The notes beneath the pieces were generated by a model. The model did not search any database and was not told the origin of the DNA. It was given only the letters and a program-made list of their open reading frames with translations. Positions 3,289-51,096 of a stretch of 51,096 bases of DNA are shown piece after piece (position 1 is the stretch's first letter; every line of letters starts with the position of its first letter). The position numbers were made by a program, and so were the translations under genes. Origin of the DNA: a virus (lineage: Duplodnaviria > Caudoviricetes); the IMG/VR virus record IMGVR_UViG_3300035148_000158, positions 1 through 51,096 of that record. The stretch is one strand, 5' to 3'.

Positions 3289-3306
3289 TGTGCACTTGAG
3301 TGCACA
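3289..3306. repeat. Dispersed palindrome copy 1 (TGTGCACTTGAGTGCACA), intergenic
   Basis: Perfect 8-2-8 inverted repeat between the Cas4-like stop and the ruvC RBS. Confidence 0.95.
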
Positions 3307-17177: not shown

Positions 17178-17205
17178 AGTATACCCCTTCTGCTAGGTTT
17201 GTCAA
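17178..17205 (-). promoter_or_regulatory. Sigma70-type promoter
   Basis: TTGACA-N16-TATACT. Confidence 0.7.
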
Positions 17206-42475: not shown

Positions 42476-43693
42476 TTACTTGTGCCTGATGAAGGCCGTG
42501 TCGAAACAGCCGGAACGGGGATCGCTCGACTTCTGGACGGTCACCGAACCACCTGCCGGTGCATCACCACCCCGGGGGGCGGCAACCACCGTGCTCTTGA
42601 CGGCCTTCTCGATTCCTTCGGACTTCTGCGAGAGGGCTGCCACCTGCGCACCCTGCTCCTTCTGCGCCTTGACGACGCTCTGGAGCTGGGCACCGAACTC
42701 GTTCAGCTTCTGGGCGAGGGGTTCGACCGCCGCCTTCATGGCAGCGACCATGGCCTTCTCCTTCTCTTCCTCGTCCTCTTCTTCCACCGGAGCCGCTGCC
42801 GCCGGAGCCGCCGCAACCGCTGCCGCACCGTCGTTGCACTTCTCGGCCTTCTGGGCACCTTGGCTCGACCAGTTGAGGATGGCGAGCTTCTGCTCTGCCG
42901 TCATGGTCTCCCAGACGCCCTTGTCGAAACCGGCGGGGCCGTCCTTCGGAACGCTGTCCGAGGCACCCGCGTTGCCCGAGTCGGTGGCGAGGGGTTCCGG
43001 GCTGCCTTGGACTTGGGCCGCGCCACCCGCCGTCGGGGCCGGGGTCTTCTCGCCGTCGGTCATCGAGCCGGTGGTCAGCACCTTCGGGTCGTTCAGGGTG
43101 CCGCCTTGCGAGACCCGCTCCGCCTTGGCAACGGCTTCGGCCGCCGCTTGGGCTTCTTGCGGGATGGTGTCCGTCAGGACGCGGGCGTAGTCGATCACCT
43201 CTTGGGCGTCCGAGTACTCCGACTTCTTGGCCAGCTTCGCCGCCATCTCTTGGGCCGCCGCAGGACCGTGCAGGAAGCCATCGGCCTTCAGGGCCGGGTG
43301 GACGTCCAGCTCCGGCATGTTGCGCACGAGGGCGACCACGTGGTCGTTCATGCGGATGACCGTGGAGCCGTCTTCCGGGTCCGACTTCTGGACGATCAGG
43401 GCCGAGCCGTCCGGGTTGTCCACGATGTTGTCGACCGACAGCCCCGCCTCTTGGATGGCGGCCTTGACGGCTTCGAACTTGTCGGTCTTCTCGACAACGA
43501 GAGCCGTGACTTCCGGCACGCGAGCATCCGCTTCACGCTTCAGGACGCGGCTGATACTGGTCAGATCGAGCATGTGATTCTCCTTGTCCCGCTTCATGAT
43601 GCGAATGGGAATGCGATTGGCACTGCGGGTCACGAGGGATACGAAGTGCGCATCTGCGTCCTTCATTTCCCGAAGTTTTTTGGTGATTTTCAC
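42476..43693 (-). CDS. Capsid scaffold protein with an N-terminal protease-like segment
   Basis: Ala/Glu/Lys-rich with C-terminal coiled coil, upstream of the capsid gene; N-terminal FVSLVTRSAN; internal RBS and ATG at 43573. Confidence 0.7.
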   Translation of the reverse strand: MKITKKLREMKDADAHFVSLVTRSANRIPIRIMKRDKENHMLDLTSISRVLKREADARVPEVTALVVEKTDKFEAVKAAIQEAGLSVDNIVDNPDGSALIVQKSDPEDGSTVIRMNDHVVALVRNMPELDVHPALKADGFLHGPAAAQEMAAKLAKKSEYSDAQEVIDYARVLTDTIPQEAQAAAEAVAKAERVSQGGTLNDPKVLTTGSMTDGEKTPAPTAGGAAQVQGSPEPLATDSGNAGASDSVPKDGPAGFDKGVWETMTAEQKLAILNWSSQGAQKAEKCNDGAAAVAAAPAAAAPVEEEDEEEKEKAMVAAMKAAVEPLAQKLNEFGAQLQSVVKAQKEQGAQVAALSQKSEGIEKAVKSTVVAAPRGGDAPAGGSVTVQKSSDPRSGCFDTAFIRHK

Positions 43694-43719
43694 AGTGTCG
43701 TATTCAGTCGTTCGCGGGA

Positions 43720-43751
43720 AGTGTAGCGGGAGTGCCCACTTCCTAACAAAA
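43720..43751 (-). promoter_or_regulatory. Putative late promoter
   Basis: TTTGTTAGGAAGTGG-N10-TACACT. Confidence 0.65.
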
Positions 43752-44351
43752 TCAGTCGATGATTTCCAAGGAATCGACGCTGGAGAAGCGGTGGCGATGA
43801 CCGTCCATCTCCTCCGTTACCGTCCCACCCTTGATCGTGTGCCTATGCCCGTTGACCGTGTCGGTCACGCCCCCGAGGAAGTCTCCCTCCGGGGAGTAGT
43901 TCACGAAGAACTGGTGCTCGTGGTTCTCGGACTTGGTGGTGCGGCCGGAGATGACAGGGGGGAGCTGGAGAGTCACTTCCTTCTCCTCGCGTCCCACCAG
44001 AGCTTCCACGGACAGGCCGTTCAGCTCGCCTTTCTTGATCCGGTTCCACGTGTCGGTGTGGTCGACATGGATGCCCAGCACCCAAGACCCGGGGATGAAG
44101 TCCGGGTCACCCTTGCGGGCGATGAAGGACTCCACCGCTTGGACTCCATCGATGGTCTTGTTGTCGTGCTGGACGTCGATCTGCTTGAGGCGGCCCTTCT
44201 TGACGAAGTCGTGAGCCATCTTCTCGATGGTCTCGGCCGTCATGAACTCCCCGTCGGAGTCTGGGCGATTCGGCGCGTACACCTCCGCGTAGACCATCCG
44301 CTTCTCGGCGGGAACGGACTTGCGGACGATGAGCTTGACTTCACGGGTCAT
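43752..44351 (-). CDS. XkdF-like prohead protease
   Basis: RMVYAEVYAPN..DSDGEFM...IDVQH...VESF...GSWVLG...IKKGELNGLS; C-terminal HxH repeats. Confidence 0.85.
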   Translation of the reverse strand: MTREVKLIVRKSVPAEKRMVYAEVYAPNRPDSDGEFMTAETIEKMAHDFVKKGRLKQIDVQHDNKTIDGVQAVESFIARKGDPDFIPGSWVLGIHVDHTDTWNRIKKGELNGLSVEALVGREEKEVTLQLPPVISGRTTKSENHEHQFFVNYSPEGDFLGGVTDTVNGHRHTIKGGTVTEEMDGHRHRFSSVDSLEIID

Positions 44352-44365
44352 GGAGGGCGGCAGCT

Positions 44366-44383
44366 TGTGCACTTGAGTGCACA
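44366..44383. repeat. Dispersed palindrome copy 11, directly downstream of a -10 box
   Basis: TGTGCACTTGAGTGCACA. Confidence 0.95.
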
Positions 44384-44384
44384 G

Positions 44385-44415
44385 AGTCTACTCAGCCCCC
44401 CACTACCGAACAAAC
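44385..44415 (-). promoter_or_regulatory. Putative late promoter
   Basis: TTTGTTCGGTAGTGG-N9-TAGACT. Confidence 0.6.
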
Positions 44416-44441
44416 AAAAAAGGGACCCTAAGGTCCCCTTT
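44416..44441 (-). terminator. Intrinsic terminator after the deacetylase gene
   Basis: GGGACC/GGTCCC stem with T6 on the minus strand. Confidence 0.75.
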
Positions 44442-44457
44442 CTGTCCTCCTCCCGGC

Positions 44458-45309
44458 CTAGATGTAGGCTTGGAAGGCTTCCTCCAAGGTGGTGTCGTGG
44501 ATGTCCAGCACCTTCTCGATGGGGTCTTGGTACCCTCCGGCGAGGGTCCAGACCAGAGGAATCCCGTGGTTAGCACAGGATTCGAACACCATCCGGTCCC
44601 GCTGGGCAAGTTGCTCGCTCGTCAGGAACCCTCCCAGAGGATCAGCAATGTGGGCATCCGCCCCTGCTTGGTAGAGGATCAGGTCGACGTCCCGGTACTT
44701 GTGCAGGGTCTTCTTGAGGTCATTGAAGAAGTCGTTGGCCTGAGACGGTTCGAAGTACGCCTCCCCGGCAGACCAGTGGCGGACCAGAGCCACCATGTCG
44801 GACGGGTGCCGGTCAAGGATGTCCTGCGTCCCATTCCCCCAGTGGTAGTCGCAGTCCAGAATCAGCACCGAGTCCACTTGGTTGTGGTTGAGAAGGGTAG
44901 CAGCCGTGGCCATCAGGCCGTTGAAGGTGCAGTATCCCCCGCCGAAGTCCATTCCGGCGTGGTGAAATCCCGAGTAGGGAGCACAGGCCACCGGGAATTT
45001 CTCTTCCTGCTCCAGCGTCCACATGGCAGCCTCCAGTACCCCACCACAGGTGTACAGGCAGGAGACGGCGATTTCAGCACTGGGGAAGTCGAACCCGGTG
45101 TCGATGGTCCCGCGAAGGACCCCGTTCACGTAGCCGGGATCGTGGACCGTGATGAGGTCGGCCGGATCGAAAGCCTTGTGCTCGATCACCTCGATCCCGT
45201 TCTTGAACTTCTCCTTCCACCGGGCCACTACCTTTTCAGGCTTGGACGCCGAGGGGGAGAAGGACTTGGGATGAGAGACGGCCTTGGGGGTGTAGAACAC
45301 CGGCAGCAT
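44458..45309 (-). CDS. Zn-dependent histone deacetylase family (HDAC/AcuC-like) enzyme
   Basis: VHDPGYV, GFHHAG, GGYCTFN, LDCDYHWGNGTQDI, YQAGADAHIADPLGG, LAGGY; the catalytic motifs appear complete. Confidence 0.92.
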   Translation of the reverse strand: MLPVFYTPKAVSHPKSFSPSASKPEKVVARWKEKFKNGIEVIEHKAFDPADLITVHDPGYVNGVLRGTIDTGFDFPSAEIAVSCLYTCGGVLEAAMWTLEQEEKFPVACAPYSGFHHAGMDFGGGYCTFNGLMATAATLLNHNQVDSVLILDCDYHWGNGTQDILDRHPSDMVALVRHWSAGEAYFEPSQANDFFNDLKKTLHKYRDVDLILYQAGADAHIADPLGGFLTSEQLAQRDRMVFESCANHGIPLVWTLAGGYQDPIEKVLDIHDTTLEEAFQAYI

Positions 45310-47123
45310 TACTTGCCGCCCAGTGCTTTGATCAGGTCTTCCGGGAGGCCCAGCTTCTTGGCCAGTTCCGCCGACGTCTCAGCAACGTCAGGCTCGTCGC
45401 CCAGAAGGTAGTTCATGACCGCCCCATTGGAAGGGGTGCCGTTCTTCAGGCAGTGGAAATCACCGCCCGCAGCGGGTTGTTGTTTGGACTTCATGACCAC
45501 AGTATAGCCCAATTTGACAGCTTCGTCAAATTTGCGGGCACCCGGCTTGGGAGGTGCGCTCTTGCGTGCCCGGATGTAGGCCTCCATCCGCTTCCGATCC
45601 GGAGAGTTCTTGTCGAGGGAGATGCGGGCCTTGTAGTCCGTGTTGTAGAACACGTGCTTCATGAAGCTGGAGTTCTCTTGCAGGTACTCCTGCGTCACCC
45701 CAGACACCAGCTCGTCCAGTGCGGGGGTCTTCAGGTCCACCAGCATCTGGTTCACCCGCAGGTCCTTGGTGGACAGCAGGTCCCCGATCATCTTGATTTC
45801 CCGCTTCTGCTCCGAGGTGAGGTTCTGCACCCCAGCCGTGGAGCGGATCAGGTTCTGCATGTTCTCACGAACCCCGGGAACGACACCCGGCCTGCCCTCG
45901 ATGTGGACTTCCCGGTCTTCGTCGCTCTTATACGCGAATCCGTATTTCGCCCAAGTATACGCACCCATCTCAAGGGAGGCCTGCGTAGTGATGGTTTTCA
46001 GGCCCATTTTGTCGTACAAGGCCAGCGAATCACCAAGCAGGCGAGCTGCGGTGGCTCCCCCCGCGTTGTTGAGCTTGAAGCGGAGGTAGTCGTGGTAGAC
46101 GTCCTTCTCCGCCATGTCGAAGTAGCGAGAAATCCAGTTGACTTCCGTGCCGTGAATCTTGGTGTTGTGCCCTTGCACGCCCCAGTACTTCTTGCCGTTC
46201 TCGATCTTGGTCACCACGGACCATTCCTTGGCGTCGAAGTCATCCCCAGCGAAGGTGCCGAAGATTTCCTGAGCCGTGGCCGCGTTGCCGATCTTGGCTT
46301 TGAACTCCGCCTCGTTCCATTCCTCGATTTCGTCCGGGAAGACGAAGCGGCCGGGATTCACCTTACCGACAGGTTCTTCCTTGTCTTCCCCACCCCCACC
46401 CCCGGTGCCGCTCGTCCACTGGTTTCCCCTGAACGGGTGGCCCTCGTAGTCGCCCTTCTTGGCCATGTGCTTAGCCACTGCCGGAGGCATGGGTAGCTTC
46501 TGGGCCTTGATGCCTTCAGCAAGGATGGGGAACATGAACGGCCCGACTCGCTCCAGAAACTCTGGCTCCGTCCATGCCAACCCGTAGGCCTCAGCCACAA
46601 TCTCTCCCGGGGTGGTTTGTCCGTTCAGGCTGCCGTGGGGAAACTTCTCGGCCAAGTCCCAGTCGTCCTTGTTCTTCAGGTACCACATGTCCAGCTCGTT
46701 GAAGTGGGCGGCCTCATGAATCAGCACATGACGTTGCTGCTCCTTGTCCAACCCCTTGAACTTGGGTCCCACTTCCACGTGCCGCCCAGACAGGGTGGTC
46801 GCCTCATTCCCCAGCCGAGGGTTCTCCTTCACCGGGATGGTCTTCAGGAAGGTGTCCAGCTCCTCCACGGAAGCCCCGCCGCCCCCCGTGTACTGATTCC
46901 CACGGAAGGGATGACCTTCGAAGTCGCCCTTTCGGAGGAGACTCCGGTACCCGGGGGAGGCCCCCGAGAGAATCTGCTGGGCCTTGGGGAGCTGGTACCC
47001 GGCCACGTGGATCAGCACATCGAGGTCCTTCTCCGTCGTCGGCTTGGCTTTGCCGAGGATGCGGTTGAAGGCAACCTGAGTGAGGTCGCGGCCCTTGCGG
47101 ATGATGGAGGCGTAGCGGGTCAT
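45309..47123 (-). CDS. Putative capsid-internal polyprotein: two GHPFRGNQ repeats, HEXXH peptidase-like domain, GNAT-like domain
   Basis: KGDFEGHPFRGNQYT (46887-46931) and KGDYEGHPFRGNQWT (46413-46457); IHEAAH...AEAY; HDYL...YDKMGLKTITTQASLEMGAYTWAKYGF. Confidence 0.6.
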   Translation of the reverse strand: MTRYASIIRKGRDLTQVAFNRILGKAKPTTEKDLDVLIHVAGYQLPKAQQILSGASPGYRSLLRKGDFEGHPFRGNQYTGGGGASVEELDTFLKTIPVKENPRLGNEATTLSGRHVEVGPKFKGLDKEQQRHVLIHEAAHFNELDMWYLKNKDDWDLAEKFPHGSLNGQTTPGEIVAEAYGLAWTEPEFLERVGPFMFPILAEGIKAQKLPMPPAVAKHMAKKGDYEGHPFRGNQWTSGTGGGGGEDKEEPVGKVNPGRFVFPDEIEEWNEAEFKAKIGNAATAQEIFGTFAGDDFDAKEWSVVTKIENGKKYWGVQGHNTKIHGTEVNWISRYFDMAEKDVYHDYLRFKLNNAGGATAARLLGDSLALYDKMGLKTITTQASLEMGAYTWAKYGFAYKSDEDREVHIEGRPGVVPGVRENMQNLIRSTAGVQNLTSEQKREIKMIGDLLSTKDLRVNQMLVDLKTPALDELVSGVTQEYLQENSSFMKHVFYNTDYKARISLDKNSPDRKRMEAYIRARKSAPPKPGARKFDEAVKLGYTVVMKSKQQPAAGGDFHCLKNGTPSNGAVMNYLLGDEPDVAETSAELAKKLGLPEDLIKALGGK

Positions 47124-48778
47124 CGGAACACCGAGCGGAAGCGGTCCAGAGCTTCCCTGTCCGCCATGGACAGGGCACCCATGAAGTCGACATCTCCCAG
47201 CACAGCCCGCCCCACCGGCTGGCCGTTCACCGTAGCCGTGAGGGCAATGAGACCGAAGGCTGCCCGGGGGTCTTCCGAGTTTAGCAAGTCCGTGACCGCC
47301 GAAAGCTGAATCTCATCGAGCTGGTCGAGGAACTCATCCAGACGGCCCCCGGGTTCAAGGTCCCGAAGAGCCTGTCGGCGCATCCGATCCCAATCGGCCT
47401 TGCCGGGGAGGAACCCCGCCTTGATCATGGCCTCCGCATTGGAGTTGTTCACGCTGACCGCCACAGCCGAAGCCCCCACGTGCTTGGCCAAGGCCACCGA
47501 GCCACGGAAGACGTTCCTGATCGTGCGCTCCGCTTCCGCGCCCGTGAGGTTCTCCATCTCGATTCGGTTCTGGTAGAAGATGCCCTCGTCCGGGTCGTAG
47601 TCACTGTCGACGTCCACCCGGCCCCGCCCCACCTTGCCCCGGGCGGCGAAGCGGTACCCCGCCGCAGTGATCAGGGTCTCCATGCTGATCTTTCCCGACA
47701 TGATGTCGACGGGATCGAACCCGGTCGCCTTCGACAGGGCCATGGCCGGGACCAGACCGATGTCCTTGTTCCACCCCTCCACCTCCTGCTGGGACACCAC
47801 CTGCTCCATCTCATCGAAGGTCTGGGGGGTGACGAAGGTAACGGGTCCGAGGTCCTCCACTTCTTCAGGCTCAGGCTCCGCCTGCTCCATGGAGGGGGGC
47901 ATGATCACCTCCTCCCCGGTCTTGACCAGCATCGTCCGACACCACGGATGGAACGGGGGGATGAGGATGCCCTCAGCCTCCAGCTCGTCCTCCGTCATGT
48001 TGGCGTAGCGCTCGATGGAGTCCTTGTCCTGATCCGGCCACGGGTGGACGAACTTCAGCTCGTCGTCGTTCTCGACCGACAGGGCGCGGTTCACCAGACG
48101 GCGGGCCGACTCTACTTCGAACTCCCGGCCGTCGATCATCTGGCAGAAGTCCGAGGTCCGGTTGTCGATCTGGGCTTCCAGACGGTAGCGGGTGAGGCCG
48201 ATCACCTCTGCCTCCGCCACGAACCCCCACGTGGACAGCCGTGAGGTGTGCAGGGCGGACCCCATCATGAGCTGCCGGTCGCCCTGCTCGCTGAAGTCCA
48301 CGAACTCCCGGACGTAACGCTTCTCGGCCTTGAAGACAGCCTCCTGAAAGCTCTTGACCGCCCGTTCCTTGTTGAACTCCTCCTGCACCTTGCTGATCTG
48401 CCGATCCGCGAAGTCCCGGAGCTGCATGGAGGCTTGGTTGCTCACCCAGTTCTGGAAGGAATCCACCACCCGGTTGAGGAGAGGCTCGTGGCCGCCGATG
48501 GTGTAGACGACGTCCTTGGCATTCGTGTGGGCGTTGATGGCACCCATCTTCCCCGCCGCGTAGAACATGAACTTCACCCACTCACGATTCTGCCGAACCG
48601 CCGAGTCCATGTTGATGTGGCGAGCGAGGTCCCGGGCGTCATTGAACCGCCCCTTCCCCACCTGCTCCTTCATCTGCACGAACAGGCCCGCTGCCGTGGG
48701 CTGCCATGTGCGCAGCAGCCTCCGGTTGAGAGCCGACTCGATGTGCAGGAAGTTCTGGAGGTTCTGGGTGTTGCTCAT
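47120..48778 (-). CDS. MuF (SPP1 gp7-like) minor head protein with C-terminal extension
   Basis: DNRTSDFCQMIDGREF and PPFHPWCRT MuF motifs, followed by about 260 extra residues. Confidence 0.85.
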   Translation of the reverse strand: MSNTQNLQNFLHIESALNRRLLRTWQPTAAGLFVQMKEQVGKGRFNDARDLARHINMDSAVRQNREWVKFMFYAAGKMGAINAHTNAKDVVYTIGGHEPLLNRVVDSFQNWVSNQASMQLRDFADRQISKVQEEFNKERAVKSFQEAVFKAEKRYVREFVDFSEQGDRQLMMGSALHTSRLSTWGFVAEAEVIGLTRYRLEAQIDNRTSDFCQMIDGREFEVESARRLVNRALSVENDDELKFVHPWPDQDKDSIERYANMTEDELEAEGILIPPFHPWCRTMLVKTGEEVIMPPSMEQAEPEPEEVEDLGPVTFVTPQTFDEMEQVVSQQEVEGWNKDIGLVPAMALSKATGFDPVDIMSGKISMETLITAAGYRFAARGKVGRGRVDVDSDYDPDEGIFYQNRIEMENLTGAEAERTIRNVFRGSVALAKHVGASAVAVSVNNSNAEAMIKAGFLPGKADWDRMRRQALRDLEPGGRLDEFLDQLDEIQLSAVTDLLNSEDPRAAFGLIALTATVNGQPVGRAVLGDVDFMGALSMADREALDRFRSVFR

Positions 48779-49308
48779 TCCTCGTCCTCCATCTCGGCCA
48801 GCATCATGGCCAGCACTTCTTCTTCCAGTCGGGTGTAGTCGACGTATCCACGGACCCCCGGGACACGATGGCGACGTTCAATCGGGTAGCACGCCCCGGT
48901 GAGGATGCCCTTGCCGAGCGGAGCCATGATCTGTGCACTTGAGTGCACGGAGGGCACCACGATCTTGTTGCGCCCGCGACCTTCCATCGGGGCGATCTGG
49001 TGGTGATTCTCCACCACCGGGATGCGCATCGTCCGGGCAGGACGCTCTTCCGGCTTCCAGCGGGCGAGGCGACTCCAGTACCAGAAGCCTCCCCGGCCAC
49101 CAGCACCTTCCTCGACCGGGGGTTCAACCGGCGGCTGTTCGTAGCAGGGTCCAATTCCCTGAACCGCAGTGAGTCGAGGCCCATACCCAATGCCCTGCAC
49201 TGCGATCTGTCGAGCGCAGACCCCCTCCCCGACGGGAGGTTGCACGGCATTGAATACCTCTGACCCCGCAATGGGGGCTGAGGAGATGGGCCAGATGCCA
49301 AACATCAC
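48775..49308 (-). CDS. Hypothetical protein
   Basis: MFGIWPISSAPIA start; 4-bp overlaps with both neighbours. Confidence 0.55.
   Translation of the reverse strand: MMFGIWPISSAPIAGSEVFNAVQPPVGEGVCARQIAVQGIGYGPRLTAVQGIGPCYEQPPVEPPVEEGAGGRGGFWYWSRLARWKPEERPARTMRIPVVENHHQIAPMEGRGRNKIVVPSVHSSAQIMAPLGKGILTGACYPIERRHRVPGVRGYVDYTRLEEEVLAMMLAEMEDEE
48932..48949. repeat. Dispersed palindrome copy 12, intragenic
   Basis: TGTGCACTTGAGTGCACG; encodes VHSSAQ. Confidence 0.95.
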
Positions 49309-49583
49309 GCACCACCGTCGTCCACTGCGTTGGTGTACTGCCCCGCCCTGCCGTCAATCTGTCCGCCCCCTTGCAGGAAGGCGAGGAGCTGGGCCTGAAG
49401 GTAGGGCCACGGCTTCTCGTTGGCGTACGGGAAGGTCATCTCAAAATTGTCCAGCTTCTGCCCGCCCGCCACCACGATGAAGTGCCCGGTGTATCCCTCG
49501 TCCTTGTGGACGTAGGCCCTCAGCACCCTGATCTTGGCGGGGAAGGAAGTGCCGAACACGTTTGCTGTACAGTCGATTGCCAT
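49305..49583 (-). CDS. Hypothetical protein (fibre-associated?)
   Basis: 92-aa ORF with GGAG RBS. Confidence 0.6.
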   Translation of the reverse strand: MAIDCTANVFGTSFPAKIRVLRAYVHKDEGYTGHFIVVAGGQKLDNFEMTFPYANEKPWPYLQAQLLAFLQGGGQIDGRAGQYTNAVDDGGA

Positions 49584-49593
49584 GTCTGCTCCA

Positions 49594-50259
49594 TCATGAA
49601 GTGTAGTGGACCACGATGCGGGGGGTATTGCAGTAGAAGGTGACGTACCCGGAAGTTAGCCCATCCACATAGGCCTGCACCAGCAGGCTGAAGTTAGCCG
49701 AGTTCACCTCCGTGTAGCTCCACGTTGTGCCCCACATGTCCTTGTACCCGCCCAAGTAGTTATGCGTGGGCGGACCCGAAGTCCAGTATTGGGTGCCAGC
49801 GATGTTGCTGCCGTCCTTGGACAGGCCCCATCCAAGTAGAGCTGTACCGTCACTCTGGTTGTCTATCCACCCACCCTCTATCCCAACGGCGATGCCCCGG
49901 ATGGTGGCCCCTGAAGGAATGGCGAACCCGATGCTTGCCAACTTGAGGAAGCCACTGTTGCCGTTCGCATCCAGAGTGATGTCGGCGTAGGACGCATCCC
50001 CAGAGAAGTCGGCGGGGTTGTTCCAGTCCCCAGCACTGCCGGTCCCCTCCAAGTACTTGGACACGCACGTGTGACCGTAGAAGTCCGTGCCTAGCGAGGT
50101 CTGGGTTCCGTTCGTGTCTCCGTTCAGCTCGTGGTTGCAGTAGTCCAGCCCGTAGTAAGTCGCCGGGAGGATCAACTCCATGAGGTCTTGCGGTCCGGCA
50201 TTGTTGCCGAACAGACCGATGGCACCACTAGCAGGAGTGGACCGGGTAGTGGTGGTCAC
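49594..50259 (-). CDS. Beta-rich fibre-associated protein
   Basis: GFAIPSGATIRGI...GGYKDMWGTTWSYTEVNSANF; overlaps the S74 gene stop. Confidence 0.6.
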   Translation of the reverse strand: MTTTTRSTPASGAIGLFGNNAGPQDLMELILPATYYGLDYCNHELNGDTNGTQTSLGTDFYGHTCVSKYLEGTGSAGDWNNPADFSGDASYADITLDANGNSGFLKLASIGFAIPSGATIRGIAVGIEGGWIDNQSDGTALLGWGLSKDGSNIAGTQYWTSGPPTHNYLGGYKDMWGTTWSYTEVNSANFSLLVQAYVDGLTSGYVTFYCNTPRIVVHYTS

Positions 50260-51096
50260 TTGTGCCCCTTGGCGATCAGCACTTCGCGCTCCAGCCTGCG
50301 AATGCGCTCGTCTTGCTCCTTGACCGCTTCGATCAGCAGGGCCACGAGGTTGCCATACGCCAGAGAGTAGCGGTCGTTCTCATCGTGCTGCACCACCTCC
50401 GGGACCACACCCTCCACCTCTTGGGCGATCAAGCCCATCTGGCGAGGCTTGCCTTCGATGTCGGTACGGTTGTACGTGTAGCCGGTGAGCTGGCGAACCA
50501 GCTTCATGGCGTCGTGGATCACCTCCACGTTTTCCTTCACCCGGCGGTCGGAGTAGGCCGTGACGTTGCCCGTCACCGTCAGGTCGGAAGCCGTGGTTGT
50601 GGTGAGTACGGTGTCCCACGAGATGGTGTTGGGGTTCGTCCCGGCAGCTTTGCGGTAGTAGGTGATGACATCGGACACCGCAAATAGACCGGTGGGTGTC
50701 GATGATGCGTGCAGGTACTTCCACGCCCCGTCATAGTAGCAATTTGAGGCCAGATACGCCGACTGGTTAAACGACATCGTGGCGGCGTAGGCCCCGTGGT
50801 AGACACCAATCGCCCCACCAGCCATGGCGGGCACTGAGTCGTACCCAAGAGAGGCCGTTGTTGCAGAGTGAACTGTGAGGCCAGCCGTGTTGCTCGGACG
50901 CAGCTTCACAGCCGAACCGCCCACCTCCACGGGGAGCCAAGCGGTGTTGGTGCGGTCGTAACCGAAGAAACGGGCTGTCCCAGAGAGGTAGTCCATCTCC
51001 GCGCCTGCACCACCCCCACCACCATCGGAGGCTGCCTGCGACCGGATGCCGCCTTGCACATCCAGCTTCTGGCCTTCCGTGAGCGTGCCGATGGAC
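50256..51096 (-). CDS. Fibre protein with C-terminal peptidase S74 intramolecular chaperone (5' end outside the window)
   Basis: YSDRRVKENV...GLIAQEVEGVVPEVV...SLAYGNLVALLIEAVKE; frame stays open to the window edge (SIGTLTEGQKLDV). Confidence 0.88.
   Translation of the reverse strand, partial: SIGTLTEGQKLDVQGGIRSQAASDGGGGGAGAEMDYLSGTARFFGYDRTNTAWLPVEVGGSAVKLRPSNTAGLTVHSATTASLGYDSVPAMAGGAIGVYHGAYAATMSFNQSAYLASNCYYDGAWKYLHASSTPTGLFAVSDVITYYRKAAGTNPNTISWDTVLTTTTASDLTVTGNVTAYSDRRVKENVEVIHDAMKLVRQLTGYTYNRTDIEGKPRQMGLIAQEVEGVVPEVVQHDENDRYSLAYGNLVALLIEAVKEQDERIRRLEREVLIAKGHK

Follow-up and report, generated by a model that had tools for sequence, protein, structure and literature searches.

A candidate acetylation effector, partner and eraser cassette in the head module of a tailed phage

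Two described systems combine a MuF toxin with a small binding immunity protein and a reversing enzyme: Bxa/Bsi/BAH, which works through ADP-ribosylation (PMC11699363), and Apk2/BcTis1/Aph1, which works through (p)ppApp (PMC10083569). Like these, IMG/VR virus record IMGVR_UViG_3300035148_000158 (Duplodnaviria; Caudoviricetes) has adjacent genes for a head-module effector, a small partner and a would-be reversing enzyme. The record is linear and 52% complete, and its whole stretch of 51,096 nucleotides is referred to here as the window. All head, tail and replication genes of the window lie on the minus strand, as do the genes and sites of the cassette described below. The cassette (44416-48778) comprises a MuF-type minor head protein, a 604-residue protein that carries a GNAT-fold domain and a 61-residue partner tail, and a histone deacetylase (HDAC)-family enzyme. 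By inference from the two described systems, the cassette may work as they do, and we judge the chances to be evenly balanced that it combines a MuF/polyvalent acetylating effector with an immunity protein that binds it and an HDAC that acts as its eraser.

The GNAT-fold domain and its partner family

Residues ~255-527 of the 604-residue protein (45543-46361) almost certainly adopt the GNAT alpha/beta fold, judging from an AlphaFold2 model built from a 74-sequence alignment (predicted local distance difference test, pLDDT, 88.8). The best 50 rows of a VIA structural comparison were all acyltransferase-fold chains, with RimJ/RimL-like proteins first (best Z 8.2, root-mean-square deviation 3.5 Å over 144 residues), and the rows of a Foldseek search of the PDB were acetyltransferases (best E 2.7e-3). 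The VIA Z values are modest, yet the rows agree with one another and with the family consensus. A model from the single sequence was poor (pLDDT 42) and was discarded. Pfam GNAT matches were found in 5 of the 74 alignment members, and a profile search of PDB sequences gave no match. The family counts 436 members by phmmer against 1.84 billion representatives (E ≤0.001), of which the best 150 were retrieved.

The acetyl-CoA loop of GNAT enzymes has the form Q/RxxGxG/A, and the consensus of 197 domains of this family reads QGxGxA, followed by AN.d.GgYaW.ryGF. At the loop, 132 of the 197 homologues have Q and 21 have R, and G357 is present in 165; the window has A354-G-G-A357 in place of the family Q-G-x-G. 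The first-pass annotation had located a GNAT-like stretch here, and the model, both structural searches and the family consensus uphold that resemblance, with HDYL at residue 344 and AKYGF ending at residue 396 (about 46094-45936). Its caveat that the Q/RxxGxG motif is degenerate applies to the window copy (A354, A357) and not to the family, which has QGxGxA. Because this loop deviates (Ala at 354 and 357) and Ser stands at 383, the activity of the window copy is uncertain, and we lean only slightly towards an active enzyme.

Most loci of the family share a simple layout, in which the GNAT domain ends its protein and an open reading frame (ORF) of 55-85 residues follows. A profile built from 28 such small ORFs, with the clade of the window left out, picks out the C-terminal 61 residues of the 604-residue protein (residues 544-604; 45309-45494) at 12.2 bits, a score that 0 of 1000 shuffles reached, and the partner domain is here fused in frame. 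A wider partner profile found a match within 450 nucleotides of 78 of 123 GNAT loci, 43 of the 78 being in the profile itself; the 123-locus set includes duplicated contigs and corresponds to 104 clusters at 90% identity. In a held-out test the partner was present at 16 of 28 loci. Partners at the 78 loci are separate and in sense orientation (41), antisense (24), at the start of longer ORFs (7) or fused (6), and 66 of the 78 are net acidic. A TAnnTTTG box, which we take to be a Bacteroidota-type promoter motif, stands within 120 nucleotides upstream of 16 of the 24 antisense partners, compared with 206 of 3552 background windows (5.8%). The family libraries searched, including NCBIfam and PADLOC, hold no name for the partner family. 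A small candidate immunity ORF directly downstream of the effector, as in MuF systems, is therefore found at the level of the family, and in the window it has become part of the effector protein. A weak partner match was also found in gp5 of the cultured phage PBC5, behind MuF-GNAT.

Other layouts of the partner were noted in passing. In Bacteroidota-type prophages (L146, L149, L178, L185, L188, L196, L206 and others) the partner gene is convergent to MuF-GNAT and has its own promoter-like box. Elsewhere partner genes stand in tandem, or the partner domain forms the N-terminus of the leader-bearing cargo protein that follows (L111:5452-6018; L116, L148, L159 and L137).

The tail of the window has a putative promoter of its own. 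A sigma70-type site, TTGACG-17-TATACT (45501-45529), is the sole consensus match in 43000-51096. Nowhere else on the minus strand above position 17205 does a site score 10/12 or more, and the five such sites of the replication region are similar to it. The tail ATG at 45494 lies 6 nucleotides past the -10 box, which would make the transcript leaderless, and the promoter is predicted to transcribe the tail and the HDAC gene up to a terminator. Its arrangement and spacing are identical in L076, a viral locus that shares the fusion. In L052, L063 and L087 the promoter stands before a separate partner ORF, and in L052 and L063 a second promoter stands ahead of the HDAC gene. Separate expression from its own promoter is what an immunity gene needs, and a small, often antisense partner is a hallmark of toxin-immunity pairs (PMC5576092). 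Putative host-type promoters of this kind precede the partner in differing gene arrangements, and the 61-residue tail is probably a binding immunity protein. Neither the tail nor its internal promoter had been seen in the first-pass annotation.

The HDAC-family enzyme and its linkage to GNAT loci

The HDAC ORF (44458-45309; 283 residues) encodes a Zn-dependent HDAC-family amidohydrolase that is class IV or cluster-5-like, with a Pfam PF00850 match at E 2e-32. H116/H117, D152/D154/H156, D218, D223 and GGY260 are invariant across 20 homologues, in keeping with the HH dyad, DxDxH, GxD...D and GGY motifs first read from the sequence. The closest PDB sequences are 9GKV (VcHdaH; E 5e-25) and 9RJE (chrHDAC11-1/A; E 1e-21). 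The RPP motif is lost in the window enzyme (PYSGFHH) as it is in VcHdaH (SGGYHH), and both have an xGGY loop. Acetylpolyamine amidohydrolase (APAH) identity is not favoured, as APAH 3Q9B matches only at E 1.5e-11, compared with E 5e-25 for class IV; PMC9992855 found viral APAHs in Imitervirales only. The enzyme is likely cytoplasmic because it carries no leader motif of the kind found on cargo modules.

Linkage was assessed in a pattern-limited survey of 2.9 million IMG/VR contigs, which yielded 194 confirmed HDAC stretches and 154 confirmed GNAT stretches. The viral loci examined were 80 of the 194 HDAC stretches and 80 of the 154 GNAT stretches, plus 28 further GNAT loci, and HDAC genes were sought within 5-6 kb of GNAT loci. 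From the HDAC side, the GNAT domain was found at 3 of 80 viral loci (L076, L052 and L063); from the GNAT side, an HDAC was found near 5 of 80 (3 of the 5 in the query alignment), which gives 5 of 108 viral GNAT loci with an HDAC and 103 without. Both families are rare enough for this overlap to be more than chance would give, yet an HDAC is no fixed part of the GNAT loci. A link between HDAC homologues and this domain in other phages, the check named in the first-pass annotation, is thus real but rare. The proposal that the HDAC is the counterpart of the GNAT domain survives in part: the link in other phages is non-random, but the HDAC is not a general partner (5/108 viral and 0/42 GTDB loci).

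At L076, L052 and L063 gene order is conserved. L076 repeats MuF, GNAT with tail, HDAC and terminator, with the promoter just ahead of the tail, whereas L052 and L063 keep the order GNAT-partner-(RelA)-HDAC at 21-23% GNAT identity, with a RelA/SpoT gene inserted in L063. Within each of the two top GNAT/HDAC homologue pairs the longest contigs are identical in length (2956 and 11394 nucleotides), which suggests that each pair lies on one contig. The linked HDACs fall at three places on a quick tree. No HDAC fusion was present among 150 GNAT-family proteins, and a search for longer fused homologues gave no match, which is weak evidence. The open-access literature yielded no phage GNAT-HDAC pair and no account of the partner family; the GNAT family itself might appear in the supplements to Iyer 2017 and Jamet 2017.

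We also note several HDAC proteins outside these loci. An 82-member ESM Atlas cluster of 628-residue HDAC proteins from Thermodesulfobacteriota contains a region structurally similar to the GNAT domain (TM 0.64); this might be a fusion of writer and eraser, which we treat as a lead only. A separate phage HDAC clade (L054, L062, L069, L071-L075, L077, L079 and L080) usually stands behind a near-consensus sigma70 promoter; several of its members adjoin a conserved 187-residue gene (RACHVRRWH) and precede a conserved ~415-residue gene, and a nucleotide-modification cluster is our guess for this arrangement. Distant HDACs occur in the cultured phages Rhodococcus E3 (HM114277.1 gp202) and Microbacterium Magritte (OR553905.1 gp204), with 7 of 50,697 phage records matched. 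A single-protein HDAC scan of viral contigs gave no match.

The polyvalent protein, the MuF gene and their setting

The 604-residue protein (45309-47123) is built as leader, zincin-like module, leader, GNAT domain and partner tail. The leader KGD(F/Y)EGHPFRGNQ stands ahead of each module, as KGDFEGHPFRGNQ at residues 65-77 (46893-46931) and again as KGDYEGHPFRGNQ at residues 223-235 (46419-46457). Homologues have analogous short motifs before their modules (KGAPxGNxNA, KxNPxHDxxGRF and HPRDxxGxF), and in relatives Lys-led leaders stand before ADP-ribosyltransferase (ART), Acb1, RelA/SpoT and GNAT modules. Such leaders are likely a capsid-loading signal or a maturation-cleavage signal for the head protease. 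Residues 84-221 (module at 46461-46874) hold HEAAH (residues 136-140) and EIVAE (residues 174-178), with a Pfam SprT-like match at E 0.13 and ESM Atlas rows that are mostly zincin families, every one under the naming bar; this HEXXH module is likely a metallopeptidase, its family assignment being a lead only. A single late-gene polypeptide thus carries at least two effector-type domains, zincin-like and GNAT, and combinations of ART, Acb1 and GNAT occur in relatives. The module and the two leader copies, which the first-pass annotation had missed, appear to mark a polyvalent virion protein.

Virion cargo is also a probable role for the GNAT domain on the evidence of its relatives. Members of the family are fused to MuF, ART, Acb1 and NUDIX domains, and the family matches 'minor head/capsid' genes in the cultured phages PBC5 and R7M. 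Leader-motif cargo genes whose modules include Acb1, ART, RelA/SpoT and GNAT form arrays in L052:3331-7634, L063:2241-7637 and L087:2152-5648, the last adjoining a terminase-like gene.

Upstream, the MuF ORF (47120-48778; 552 residues) encodes a MuF-type minor head protein domain at residues 1-292 (47903-48778). Its matches to PF04233 (E 0.015) and TIGR01641 (E 6e-7) are below the curated cut-offs, and PHROG head-morphogenesis matches reach E 5e-8; weak and mutually consistent, they point to a MuF domain in the head module. This N-terminus is 35% identical to that of gp2 of DLP3/DLP5, which shares residues 6-292 and ends in a ParB-like domain, so that variable C-termini follow a common N-terminus. 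DLP3 gp2 was detected by mass spectrometry of particle preparations, in which, according to the authors, non-structural proteins were also present (PMC7326821).

The C-terminal extension of MuF (residues ~313-552; 47123-47842) had been suspected to be a second degenerate copy of the GNAT-like domain, and the family hidden Markov model (HMM) confirms this suspicion at E 8e-9 (Z=1e6); the MuF of L076 matches at E 1e-15. None of the motifs H, QGxG and GxYxW of the family is left in this copy, which is likely inactive. Four other MuF proteins from this subfamily (P0223, P0272, P0235 and P0213) have the GNAT domain intact. The strict layout of a MuF toxin, with an intact toxin domain on the MuF C-terminus, is seen in P0223, P0272 and P0235, whereas in the window the better-preserved copy is on the next gene. 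The simplest history would be a MuF-GNAT fusion whose function was then handed to the downstream gene.

The ORFs of MuF and the 604-residue protein overlap as ATGA (47120-47123), those of the 604-residue protein and HDAC as TAATG (45307-45311), and the coupled chain previously described for these three genes extends further upstream, to a 177-residue ORF (48775-49308) that overlaps the MuF start as ATGA. An intrinsic terminator (44416-44443; hairpin 44422-44437 plus U-tract) closes the tail and HDAC unit before the protease and capsid genes. A simple scanner reported this hairpin in the plus orientation only; minus-strand folding, done separately, gave -28.8 kcal/mol (z -4.9, with 0 of 200 shuffles equally stable) and bears out the terminator as first proposed. 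L076 has an equivalent hairpin after its HDAC gene (z -3.3).

Among cultured phages, the Stenotrophomonas siphophages DLP3, DLP5 and Summit, of ~96 kb, come nearest (capsid identity 57-58%; 58% to DLP3/DLP5); DLP3 and DLP5 are temperate (PMC7326821). In the window MuF precedes the protease, scaffold and capsid genes. DLP3 has its portal gene first, then MuF with a ParB-like tail and, directly after it, the protease; the window has the same MuF N-terminus but another tail, and two additional genes ahead of the protease. The cassette therefore occupies a variable slot.

The region upstream of MuF (48775-51096) carries a tail-fibre-like S74 chaperone gene and three ORFs of no known function (221, 92 and 177 residues), at the place where the portal gene stands, in portal-MuF order, in L076 and DLP3. 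We also observed a 14-bp near-palindrome, TGCACTCAAGTGCA, in 12 copies in both orientations (expected 0.05), at 3291, 4278, 8296, 12091, 15890, 17536, 22578, 28477, 32267, 39047, 44368 and 48934. Copies are mostly ahead of genes or near promoters, with none at the internal promoter, and a variant, TGCAATCAATTGCA, recurs in DLP3, L076, L052 and L063. The element is likely an operator or a parS-like site.

Proposed mechanism, rival explanations and known systems

In the proposed scheme, the GNAT-fold domain would be loaded into the phage head and delivered at infection as an acetylating effector. The late head operon would make MuF and the polyvalent protein, and the maturation protease would split the modules at the Lys-led leader motifs. 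During late synthesis the fused tail would block the GNAT domain until the Lys-rich linker (residues ~519-530) is cut. Host RNA polymerase could, in the lysogenic state or at an early stage of infection, read from the internal promoter through tail and HDAC gene to the terminator, and the blocker and eraser thus made would act against GNAT arriving from the same or related phages. Given the HDAC class, the acetylated target would be a non-peptide amine at least as readily as a lysine. That the HDAC erases the mark of this GNAT family has, in our estimate, about an even chance. More tentatively, the locus may represent a capsid-delivered acetyltransferase toxin family with its own 60-residue immunity family, spread across phages of many phyla, to which one lineage added an HDAC eraser and a fused inhibitor; the toxin would then be armed by head maturation, and free inhibitor and eraser would come from an intragenic promoter.

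Several observations weigh against this scheme. The GNAT domain was not found near 77 of the 80 viral HDAC loci or near any of 80 metagenome HDAC loci (41 with >1.5 kb upstream; 18 of 64 parts scanned), and no HDAC was found near the 28 further viral or the 42 GTDB GNAT loci. A tree that joins the window-clade and L052/L063 HDACs, as one origin would require, is not rejected (p-AU 0.32), and the third linked group (L131 and L151) is loosely paired, its sister HDAC L370 having no GNAT in 8.4 kb. Phage HDACs have their own upstream promoter in 27 of 77 cases, compared with 325 of 2708 background windows (12%). VcHdaH and chrHDAC11-1/A, of class IV clade A, hardly act on acylated peptides, if at all (PMC13325672, PMC11532494). 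Any eraser role may therefore be exercised on a product that is not a peptide. No sigma70 promoter was found in L132, L133 or L142, which have fused tails, and no integrase, repressor or other lysogeny gene was recognized in the 52%-complete record. In the window GNAT, the Ala at G357 is shared by only 3 of 197 homologues and the Ser at N383 by 9 of 197.

Part of this evidence would suit a reading in which GNAT and immunity protein stand but the HDAC has no tie to them. It would be a passenger, a moron with acyl-amines of host or phage as its substrates, that came into the slot a single time and is served by a promoter and terminator already in place. HDACs occur in many unrelated phage contexts, often with their own promoter; 103 of 108 viral GNAT loci lack them, the tree test does not reject one origin, and clade-A-like enzymes are without peptide activity (PMC13325672). 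We nevertheless consider a passenger rather unlikely: the neighbourhood is kept in very divergent phages (21-23% GNAT identity), in L063 across the inserted RelA/SpoT gene, the rarity of both families (194 and 154 stretches among 2.9 million contigs) places 3 of 80 far above chance, and writer/eraser pairing has precedent in MuF systems. Co-fusion of the GNAT domain with Acb1, ART, RelA/SpoT and NUDIX modules, its presence in Bacillus phages JL and CP-51 and the role proposed for polyvalent GNATs by Iyer et al. (PMC5512222, PMC7824862) would instead fit a host-takeover or anti-defence switch, in which the injected GNAT acetylates a host machine and early tail and HDAC limit and reverse this as a timer. 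Such a switch differs from the effector, immunity and eraser reading in purpose only, and we regard it as improbable against the dedicated small partner, which, often antisense with its own promoter, is a toxin-immunity hallmark (PMC5576092). Decay is the remaining explanation: with both GNAT copies inactive and the tail fused through loss of a stop codon, only tail and HDAC expression would be under selection. The decayed MuF copy and the deviations of the window GNAT at Q354 (Ala), G357, K360 and N383 favour such a relic. It is nonetheless quite improbable, given that R333, H344, Y370, G374, A382, G387, Y389, W391, G395 and F396 are kept and that P0004, P0005 and L076 (~40% identity) share the fusion with G at 357.

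If the more tentative reading of a widespread toxin family is true, the cassette would be the first phage acetylation writer/eraser pair, and it could show what orphan class IV HDACs act on in nature, probably not a peptide. The effector, immunity and eraser reading would also provide a cognate writer for a class IV-like HDAC; PMC13325672 leaves open which substrates this group has. The candidate effector/immunity pair is without a name in Pfam, PHROGs (604-residue protein), NCBIfam and PADLOC, and it occurs in cultured phages such as PBC5, which makes it testable.

Compared with known systems, the cassette combines features that have been described separately. Its multi-module late-gene protein, with an HEXXH zincin (metallopeptidase, MPTase) and a Rim-type GNAT, resembles the polyvalent proteins of Iyer et al. 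2017 (PMC5512222), and L052 and L063 pair GNAT with ART as described there for one GNAT family; unlike the cassette, the text of that article that we cite contains 0 occurrences of 'deacetylase' and names no small GNAT partner. A head-module MuF with a variable C-terminal extension and then a small ORF is the arrangement of the MuF polymorphic toxins of Jamet et al. 2017 (PMC5576092), whose main text has 0 occurrences of 'acetyl', although its supplementary domain tables might list such a domain. One phage GNAT acts on a host protein: phiKMV Rac is reported to acetylate RNA polymerase alpha (PMC7824862), but that source does not present it as cargo of a head module that also has an immunity partner or an eraser. 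VcHdaH (9GKV) and chrHDAC11-1/A (9RJE) are cellular and only distantly similar to the window HDAC, and the cited accounts describe no phage context for them. From Bxa/Bsi/BAH and Apk2/BcTis1/Aph1 the cassette differs in its putative acetyl chemistry (GNAT and HDAC) and in having the effector domain on the gene after MuF, the partner fused to the effector and an internal promoter. If the cassette works as proposed, the design of MuF toxin, blocker and eraser known for ADP-ribosylation and (p)ppApp would extend to acetylation.

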